DNA of 63,703 nt, counting the filler, from Reclinomonas americana ATCC 50394 (lineage: Eukaryota): assembly GCA_048213135.1 (NCBI GenBank). It is 25 parts of 25 records of this genome, joined end to end, with 100 filler letters (N's around TTAATTAATTAA, not from the genome) between each part and the next. Parts side by side here need not be neighbours in the genome. Positions count along the whole stretch, not along the records: positions 25,531 to 27,030 come from AFZH01024232.1; 24 more parts are not named here. The stretch is one strand, 5' to 3'. The position numbers and the translations under genes are program-made. Each line of letters begins with the position of its first letter. The stretch's first letter is position 1. The notes under the pieces are model-generated. The model did no database searches. It worked only from the letters and a program-made list of their open reading frames with translations, and had not been told where the DNA came from. Of the stretch, positions 25,531 to 27,030 are shown piece by piece.

Positions 25531-26025
25531 TACGAAAACACTTTACGCTGAGGTGCTACCTCAGAACGCTTGGTACCAATGACTTTCAGCGGGAGTTCCC
25601 AGCAACCAGGTGTGTCGCCTTGATGCAGAAGCCTCACCTTTTTTTGTCTGGAGAAGAGGAGAGAGTCGAGCCCTTGCGGGCTCTCCTCTCTCTCTTTTCT
25701 CCTTCATCGGCATTCGCATGTACAAGACTAGCAGCGAGAGAGAATTTCTTTGTTTCACAACCACATTCATGTGAACTCGCTACTGGGACTGCAATGAAAA
25801 ACAGTTGGGAAGGAGACAGTATGTATATATGGGGGGTTGCTTGGGAGAGAAACAAGGGAGGGAGGGAGGGAGGGAGGGTGGAGGGTGGGAGGTGGAAGGA
25901 GGGAGGGAGGGACCCTCTTCACCGCACTCTCCATCCACCAACCAATTCCGGACATACCGCCCCAGTTTCTCACCTTCCTGTTTCGTACCCATATACCCAA
26001 TATTGCATACCTTCCTAATCGGGCG
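25531..26025 (-). ncRNA. Group I intron at LSU site equivalent to L2449, 3'-truncated
   Basis: Begins immediately after exon ...CAGGGAT. Candidate IGS CAGTCCC (~25785-25791). GCTAGTC...GGCGACAC P2.1/P3 pattern and P-like TGGTTGCTGGGAA followed by TACCAAGCG. Confidence 0.85.
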
Positions 26026-26037
26026 ATCCCTGTGGTA
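26026..26037 (-). rRNA. 12-nt LSU rRNA mini-exon TACCACAGGGAT (E. coli-equivalent 2438-2449)
   Basis: Exact match to conserved eukaryotic LSU ...AAAAGT-TACCACAGGGAT-AACTGG. Preceded by an intron terminal G (26038) and followed by non-rRNA sequence. Confidence 0.88.
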
Positions 26038-27030
26038 CGATACATCCGAGCGACGATTTTGCGAGAAAAGTGTATGTGATTTTGAAATAGGAGGAGGAGA
26101 GAAAGGGAAAGGGAGACACACACACATGATATGGAAAGAGTTTTCTCTCTTTCCATGATGTGTGTGTGTGTGAAGAAGAAGAAGAAGAAGAAGGGAAAGA
26201 GAGAGACTCTCTCTCTCTTTTTTCTTCTCTTCTCTCTCTCTCCATCACCACCACCCTTCTCCTCCCCCTCCTCCTCCTATTTCAAAATCACATACACTGT
26301 GGGGGGAGGGTCAAGGGGGGAAAGGAGAAACAAGTTTGTTGTCTCTTTCCCTTCCCCCTTTCCCTCTCCCCCTTTTTTCCCATCGACGCCTCCTACAGCT
26401 CGGGCGCACGCACACACGCACGCTTCATCTGTAGGCACGGTTTCCCGTGGGTCAGACTATATCTTAAGCGCTGTTGTTGCTTCACACACAGCACCCACCG
26501 CCATTTAGTCGTTGAACTGCATCCATATCTCTTTTTCTCGGAAAGACAGACAAAGGGAGTAGTAAGAGGCAAGGAATTAAAGATTTCTGATGATTGATTT
26601 TCTCTGAGAGAGAGAAGAGGAGAGACATTCTTTCTCATAGAGAGAGAGAGACACACATGCTTCTTTCTCATAGAGAGAGAGAGACACATGCTTCTTTCTC
26701 AACAGAGAGAGAGAGACTCCTTCTCATAGAGAGAGAGACACACATGCTTCTTTCTCATAGAGAGAGAGAGACACATGCTTCTTTCTCAACAGAGAGAGAG
26801 AGACACATGCTTCTTTCTCATTGAGAGAGAGACACATGCTTCTTTCTCATAGAGAGAGACACACATATGCTTCTTTCTCAACAGAGAGAGAGACACACAC
26901 ATGCTTCTTCCTCTTCTTCTTCTCATCTTTCTTCTCAAGATCATCATCATTCAAATCTTCATCCTTTCATCAAACAAAGAGAGTCGCCCTCACGGGCTCC
27001 TCTCTTTGTTTGACCACTTCATCCTTTCAT
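26038..27030 (-). ncRNA. Group I intron (IC1) at LSU site equivalent to L2437, 5'-truncated
   Basis: GATATGGATGCAGTTCAACGACTAAATG (R, 26529-26502), CTTAAGATATAGTC (S, 26468-26455), P9 CACGG-GAAA-CCGTG, terminal G next to the mini-exon. Confidence 0.92.
26605..26910. repeat. ~30-bp minisatellite (about 10 copies) inside the L2437 intron
   Basis: Unit (AG)nACAC(AC)ATGCTTCTTT(T)CTCA(T/AC)AG. Confidence 0.92.

Follow-up and report, generated by a model that had tools for sequence, protein, structure and literature searches.

Can two group I introns lie as little as 12 nt of mature rRNA apart in the peptidyl-transferase region, and if so, to which families do they belong and how would each of them leave the transcript? 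The question is raised by one contig of the window, as we call the whole stretch of DNA that was analysed here. The window comprises 63.7 kb (63703 nt) and consists of 25 unlinked contigs of 1.0-9.2 kb each with a GC content of 0.44-0.70, which are joined by 100-nt N/TTAATTAATTAA linkers. Positions 25531-27030 represent exactly one whole contig of 1500 nt, and both introns are cut by its ends. A sequence-only reading of the minus strand had described a group I core ending in G, then a 12-mer and then a second group I intron, and this order can be read directly from the contig (Table 1). It is quite likely that the contig represents part of a nuclear LSU rRNA gene of a eukaryote, with two separate group I introns lying 12 nt apart in the peptidyl-transferase region, and its source is probably a myxomycete-like protist.

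The 12-nt exon

The minus strand runs from ...ctcggatgtatcG, which ends with G26038, into TACCACAGGGAT (26037-26026) and then into cgcccgattagg.... The 12-mer was compared with 114 environmental LSU loci, which had been fetched with AGAAAAGTTACCACAGGGAT plus a non-A base, and it is identical (12/12) to the exon before the L2449 introns in 114 of 114 loci. The L2449-family intron is inserted directly after ...ACAGGGAU, and on the other side the terminal G26038 of the upstream intron directly adjoins the 12/12 match. The previous identification of the 12-mer as LSU rRNA is borne out by this identity, and we take the exon to be E. coli 23S 2438-2449.

The conserved exon GAGGTGnnAGAAAAGT precedes the 12-mer in 108 of 110 loci whose flank is long enough, whereas cgctcggatgtatcg, the segment directly 5' of the 12-mer in the contig, has no likeness to it. 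As there is no trace of the GAGGTGnnAGAAAAGT exon in the contig, the exon identity begins exactly at the 12-mer. The base before the 12-mer is a U in all comparison loci, and group I 5' splice sites need a U as the last exon base; the U found there in normal rDNA is at least consistent with an insertion at L2437. The 5' exon ...AGAAAAGT of the upstream intron was sought in the whole window and none was found, so that the name L2437 derives from the 3' junction, and we infer this putative insertion site from the 3' side only.

Table 1. Positions of the introns, exons and predicted structural elements in the window.
Feature	Positions	Strand	Basis or remark
Putative upstream group I intron, 3' ~990 nt	26038..27030	-	cut at contig end; without 5' splice site, guide, P3(5')-P5
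GUGA-capped hairpin	26971..27012	-	flanked by 14-nt direct repeat
Peripheral insertion 5' of P6, a 31-nt unit repeated ~9 times in tandem	26628..26913	-	period 31, 9.3 copies, 84% matches
Predicted group I core	26434..26640	-	Rfam RF00028 (Intron_gpI) 41.6 bits, below the gathering score of 50, E 4e-8; nhmmer E 5e-12 to L060 intron
P6/J6-7	26529-26513	-	helix names assigned from Rfam alignment
P7 5' strand	26512-26506	-	Rfam alignment
J7/3 plus P3 3' strand	26505-26495	-	Rfam alignment
P8	26494-26468	-	Rfam alignment
J8/7	26467-26460	-	Rfam alignment
P7 3' strand	26459-26454	-	Rfam alignment
P9 GAAA hairpin	26449-26436	-	Rfam alignment
P9 extension, long imperfect GA/CT-rich hairpin, ending ...GGAUGUAUC before G26038	26039..26435	-	fold and inverted repeat
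12-nt LSU rRNA exon TACCACAGGGAT	26026..26037	-	sequence reading and fetched rDNA loci
Putative L2449-family group I intron, first 495 nt (P1 to P5b)	25531..26025	-	cut at contig end
P1-loop (L1) extension, ~235 nt, partly purine-rich versus pyrimidine-rich arm	25791..26025	-	guide offset; fold z -1.46
Internal guide sequence AGUCCCAG	25783..25790	-	invariant or near-invariant columns in family alignment
P2 hairpin, 7 bp UAGCGAG/CUCGCUG	25732..25782	-	P2 present in family
Family motif CUAGUC	25731-25726	-	directly after P2
P2.1-position hairpin, GCAA tetraloop	25650..25702	-	position relative to family alignment
P3-P4-P5-P5a/b region (GGCGACACACCUGGUUGCUGGGAA ... GGUACCAAGCG ...)	25535..25619	-	BLAST to L135; HMM
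Third group I intron, 3' part, ending G24727	24727..25430	-	separate contig; Rfam RF00028 34.8 bits, likewise below the gathering score, E 4.6e-6, 25374-25013
LSU rRNA exon starting TTAGACCGTCGTGAGACAGG, with sarcin-ricin loop	24400..24726	-	separate contig; LSU_rRNA_eukarya 140.9 bits, model 3007-3161

The downstream intron

Judged from its sequence, the downstream element is a member of the L2449 intron family. The 3' end was located for 50 L2449 introns, and a profile HMM of the 39 complete ones with a length of 300-700 nt matches 25654-25538 with an E value of 2.2e-21 over profile positions 94-193 of 436. It has no other match in the contig, and elsewhere in the window it reaches only E 0.035, in the neighbouring rDNA contig. 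When 25620-25535 was used as query in a BLAST search, 27 of the 28 matches were located 3' of the L2449 5' splice site in the respective loci, whereby in 11 of these 27 loci the 3' end of the intron was not located and a position inside the intron is assumed from offsets of 54-362 nt. The best match of the P3-P5 region is L135 with 87% identity over 79 nt (E 8e-21). Rfam gave no group I match on 25531-26040 (510 nt). Every invariant family column of P3-P4 is present in the contig, plus the GGUACCAAG segment. The contig breaks off within P5b; the 3' splice site and the catalytic core of this intron lie outside the window, in which neither AACTGGCTTGTGGCAGCC (at up to 3 mismatches) nor a further convincing HMM match for the rest of the intron was found.

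The guide GUCCC pairs with the exon GGGAU, i.e., exon nt 8-12. The guide sequence AGUCCCAG begins at intron nt 237, compared with 6-59 nt in 18 aligned relatives, and over all loci the offset of a guide-like motif is at most 82 nt in 57 of 71 and more than 100 nt in the other 14. In L085, L125, L131, L147, and L150 the guide is also located ~275 nt from the L2449 5' splice site, and therefore a long insertion in the P1 loop is not peculiar to this contig. P2 was checked in 22 family sequences, three of which are without an anchor motif; in all 19 with both anchor motifs P2 has a stem of 5 bp or more, the sequence of which differs between members (compensatory change).

A hairpin with a GA/CU stem, ...GAGAGGAG(A)GCCC-GNRA-GGGC(U)CGACUCUCU..., recurs in similar form in both introns of the contig (26971-27012 and 25650-25702, minus strand). 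This GNRA hairpin could be a mobile mini-element common to both or a tetraloop module.

The upstream intron

From its alignment, the upstream element has a true group I core that belongs broadly to the IC1 type, and its P6-P9 part is close to Tetrahymena-type IC1 cores. When the core, of which only about 100 bases are alignable, was used as nhmmer query, 24 matches with E values from 5e-12 to 1e-4 were obtained in the fetched loci, the query and the neighbouring rDNA contig having been deducted from a total of 26 rows. The relatives, whose sites were read from the sequence, comprise an intron of L060 at about 2473 (E 5e-12), one of L125 at an L1925-type site (E 2.7e-10), those of L085, L125, and L131 at about 2473 (E 8.6e-9), one of L091 that belongs to an L2449 subtype (E 2.6e-8), and one of L088 at an L1921-type site (E 5.5e-8). 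Since similar cores occur at ~L2473, L1921/L1925-type, L2563-type, and L2449 sites, no site-specific family can be named for the upstream intron. Membership in the L2449 family itself is improbable, as the profile of the 39 L2449 introns has no match to this intron at E values up to 10.

After P9 the intron continues with its P9 extension. The fold of 26445-26038 has a free energy of -228.1 kcal/mol (z -14.6; 0 of 100 shuffles were equally stable), and the extension contains an inverted repeat of 45 nt with 89% complementarity. In the folding model the extension, ~400 nt in length, would form a rod that returns the 3' end to the core, and the intron ends with ...UAUCG. At the upstream end of the contig a perfect 14-nt direct repeat, CTTCATCCTTTCAT, is located around the GUGA hairpin (26957-26970 and 27017-27030 on the plus strand).

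For the P3 3' strand GGCGGUGG the best partners are GU-rich 6-7-mers in the 480 nt upstream, where the contig is cut. Recognisable P4-P5 helices were sought in the part of the upstream intron that lies in the contig and were not found, and at the 5' end of the contig there is no guide sequence for AGAAAAGU. As the P3 partner, P4-P5, the guide and the 5' exon are all absent, the 5' third of the upstream intron probably lies past the contig end.

The upstream intron contains, 26 nt from its 3' splice site, a single copy of the octamer ACUUUUCU (26071-26064, minus strand), which matches the presumed end of the 5' exon, AGAAAAGU, in perfect Watson-Crick complementarity. The fold of minimum energy has the octamer paired inside the P9 extension. 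Such a match, which was noticed after the fact, was also obtained in 37 of 2000 simulations with a first-order Markov model.

The neighbouring rDNA contig and the assembly

A third group I intron is present with its 3' part in a neighbouring contig, and we take its site to be L2584. It has a GA/CT-rich insertion of its own, its terminal G24727 is followed by TTAGACCGTCG..., and the LSU exon begins with TTAGACCG... at 24726 and runs downward from there. The exon between 2450 and 2584 was sought in the window and not found. The sequence-only reading had counted three introns within ~150 nt of mature rRNA; the third intron indeed exists, but on a separate, unlinked contig, and the count assumes that both contigs are derived from one rDNA. 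The identity of the neighbouring LSU exon to any of the fetched environmental loci is at most 81%, which suggests that the host rRNA evolves fast. The two rDNA contigs contain 12 ORFs of 60 aa or more, seven of which were tested for an endonuclease gene with Pfam, and none of these was matched.

Elsewhere in the window there is eukaryotic DNA with a kinesin motor fragment (2144-3481) as well as bacterial DNA with the domains SBP_bac_5 (18354-19889), DUF4153 (27474-28994), and Tad (42862-44127). Since eukaryotic and bacterial contigs stand side by side, the assembly is mixed and adjacency in the window is no sign of linkage. In public sequencing runs (n = 2, share 0.07 each) tiny contigs cover only 26381-26708 and 25536-25587; these pieces are of related, mostly non-identical sequence and are without joints or flanks. 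Among the runs listed for the contig 25531-27030 there is none with RNA.

Alternative origins of the arrangement

This setting brings up the idea that the contig is a degenerate rDNA pseudogene or a chimera of a low-coverage mixed assembly, which we consider rather unlikely. It is a short contig among 25 fragments of mixed origin, P4-P6 of the upstream intron are unrecognisable and P3 is without a partner in the contig, and the public runs offer only small related pieces, all of which would fit decay or false joining. However, the exon is preserved in 12 of 12 positions, the guide, P2 and P3-P5 of the L2449 intron are intact with all invariant family columns kept, and the LSU exon of the neighbouring contig scores well (Table 1). 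Moreover, the sequence around the junction is unique and non-repetitive, and an overlap of 12 nt is presumably too short for a false joining of reads.

Less probable still is an old tandem duplication of the 12-mer together with the L2449 intron, in which the 5' splice site of the first copy would be joined to the 3' splice site of the second and the inner 12-mer would be intronic. The resemblance of the upstream P6-P9 to a Tetrahymena-like L2449 subtype (L091, L076, and L158, 92% over 38 nt, E 2.6e-8) and of the upstream P9 (CCCAC..GAAA..GUG) to the P9 of the L2449 family would agree with such a history, as would the position of the 5' flank of the upstream intron outside the contig and the breaks at both contig ends, of which the upstream one lies in or beside repeats. 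But the L2449 profile fails to match the upstream intron, as described above, better matches of the upstream core are found at other sites, about L2473 and of the L1921/L1925-type, and the upstream and downstream parts have only two short hairpin-like motifs in common. Finally, that the 12-mer is a coincidence inside one long intron or spacer, for which nothing but the small size of the motif speaks, can practically be dismissed, as TACCACAGGGAT has 1 match in the 63.7-kb window at up to one mismatch versus 0.12 expected, and as this match ends where the 5' exon of the L2449 family ends and follows right after the G that closes a group I intron.

Proposed splicing of the two introns

Under the preferred reading of two separate introns, the expected order in the transcript would be ...GAGGUGnnAGAAAAGU, the upstream intron, UACCACAGGGAU, the L2449 intron and AACUGGC..., and two-step transesterification would remove each intron separately. 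The upstream intron would be a ribozyme of another type, Tetrahymena-like (IC1-type) and with peripheral insertions full of repeats, and its terminal G26038 would dock in P7. The next base, the U of UACCAC, would then be the 3' exon, which corresponds to an insertion after 2437. P1 of the L2449 intron would be formed by GUCCC and the exon GGGAU across the P1-loop insertion of ~235 nt, with a U.G pair at the splice site, and P2, P2.1 and P3-P5 would follow as in the relatives. The first half of the micro-exon (nt 1-7) may serve the upstream P10 and its last five bases the L2449 P1. It had been supposed that the 12-nt exon must supply both P10 of the upstream intron and P1 of the downstream one, so that splicing may be ordered or coupled, but the introns need not compete for it, as the L2449 P1 takes only nt 8-12 and leaves nt 1-7 free for a P10; the two helices would abut and not compete. 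Skipping of the 12-nt exon is conceivable.

The introns of Fuligo are described as being spliced in no fixed order, except for the slower L1949 and L2449 introns, and the L2449 introns tested from Fuligo and Physarales as not self-splicing (PMC8395846, PMC3679873). If the host belongs to the Physarales, the upstream intron would usually leave first, because L2449 introns are reported to be slow and without self-splicing, and the order would be kinetic and not coupled. A more far-reaching version can be formulated, in which 2437 is an undescribed site and the upstream and the L2449 intron are a kinetically ordered pair: the micro-exon would be captured by the upstream P10, ligated to ...AGAAAAGU and then become the 5' strand of the L2449 P1, whereby ACUUUUCU would hold the 5' exon against skipping. 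In this complete form we regard the proposal as improbable.

Search for further examples and significance

Exact-pattern scans, with patterns derived from the window itself, revealed no further case of the two-intron arrangement. A 24-mer of the upstream core has no match in metagenome, genome, and viral contigs, a 24-mer of the L2449 P3-P4 region none in genome contigs, and an 18-mer across the double junction none in viral contigs. The 15-mer exon pattern retrieved 57 loci in viral contigs, most of which are expected by chance given the length of the pattern. In the searchable text of the literature, no relevant mention of L2435-L2440 was found, and searches on L2584/L2585/L2563, micro-exons, and novel sites returned nothing on a 12-nt two-intron arrangement.

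If the 5' junction is confirmed, a new insertion site would be added to the roughly 50 known in LSU rDNA, and the exon would be among the shortest that are common to two nuclear group I introns. It lies in the peptidyl-transferase centre, where skipping or mis-joining would kill the ribosome, and the locus would thus be well suited to examine how ribozymes that lie side by side fold and select their splice sites without interference. The general knowledge of group I introns is unchanged by the 12-nt arrangement.

Comparison with known intron systems

The downstream intron has the same site, guide, P2 and P3-P5a/b as 39 or more environmental members of the nuclear LSU L2449 family, whereas in comparison with this family in general the contig has a second intron that ends 12 nt upstream. 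L2449 introns had been called characteristic of myxomycetes, which is too strong, as they are obligatory in Physarales but are also found in fungi (PMC1299323) and in many environmental eukaryotes, as the fetched rDNA loci demonstrate. The Physarales L2449 introns are described as having a large P1 and other peripheral extensions with repeats (PMC3511172, PMC8395846, PMC3679873). The contig is Physarales-like in its large peripheral insertions, namely the 31-nt array and the P9 and L1 extensions, and no endonuclease gene was seen in it. G-binding-site variants are described for Physarum clades, and the corresponding core of the L2449 intron in our contig lies outside the window.

A high intron density is likewise known, as the rDNA of Fuligo septica contains 12 introns, that of Diderma niveum at least 20 and that of Mucilago crustacea seven, and these intron-rich myxomycete rDNAs resemble our case in that many group I introns are present per pre-rRNA, some of which are located close to the peptidyl-transferase centre, and in that their insertions contain repeats and no endonuclease genes (PMC8395846, PMC3679873). 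The LSU sites given for Mucilago in the text available are L828, L1926, L1949, L2066, and L2449, and 2437 is not among these.

Two ribozyme domains close together in one rDNA region are likewise present in twin-ribozyme introns such as Didymium iridis S956-1 and in twintrons. There, however, one element is nested in the other with no exon between them (PMC3679873, PMC13182076), whereas in the contig each intron has its own splice junction. Against a twintron or twin-ribozyme organisation stand the 12 bases between the introns, which have the sequence of mature rRNA, and the failure of the L2449 profile to cover the upstream element.

Further parallels come from the environmental loci. In L060 (Ga0182739_1001515) micro-exons of 24 and 26 nt separate three introns, which follow 2449, ~2473 and ~2499, and of all core matches the ~L2473 intron of L060 comes closest to the upstream intron (E 5e-12); L085, L125, and L131 have the pair of 2449 plus ~2473. 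To our knowledge, no rDNA site at 2473 has been described. The intron 24 nt 3' of L2449 lies within 2474-3420 of L060 and 2157-2660 of L125, and in L060 three introns fall within 51 nt of mature rRNA. The 3' region could be resolved in 37 loci, and in 4 of them such tight pairs occur beside L2449, probably in two lineages only. In all four loci, however, the extra introns are located 3' of L2449 and not 5', and the micro-exons are twice as long as the 12 nt of our contig. The observation made here is real, and it is an unusually tight case of a known habit, as introns 24 and 26 nt apart beside L2449 exist.
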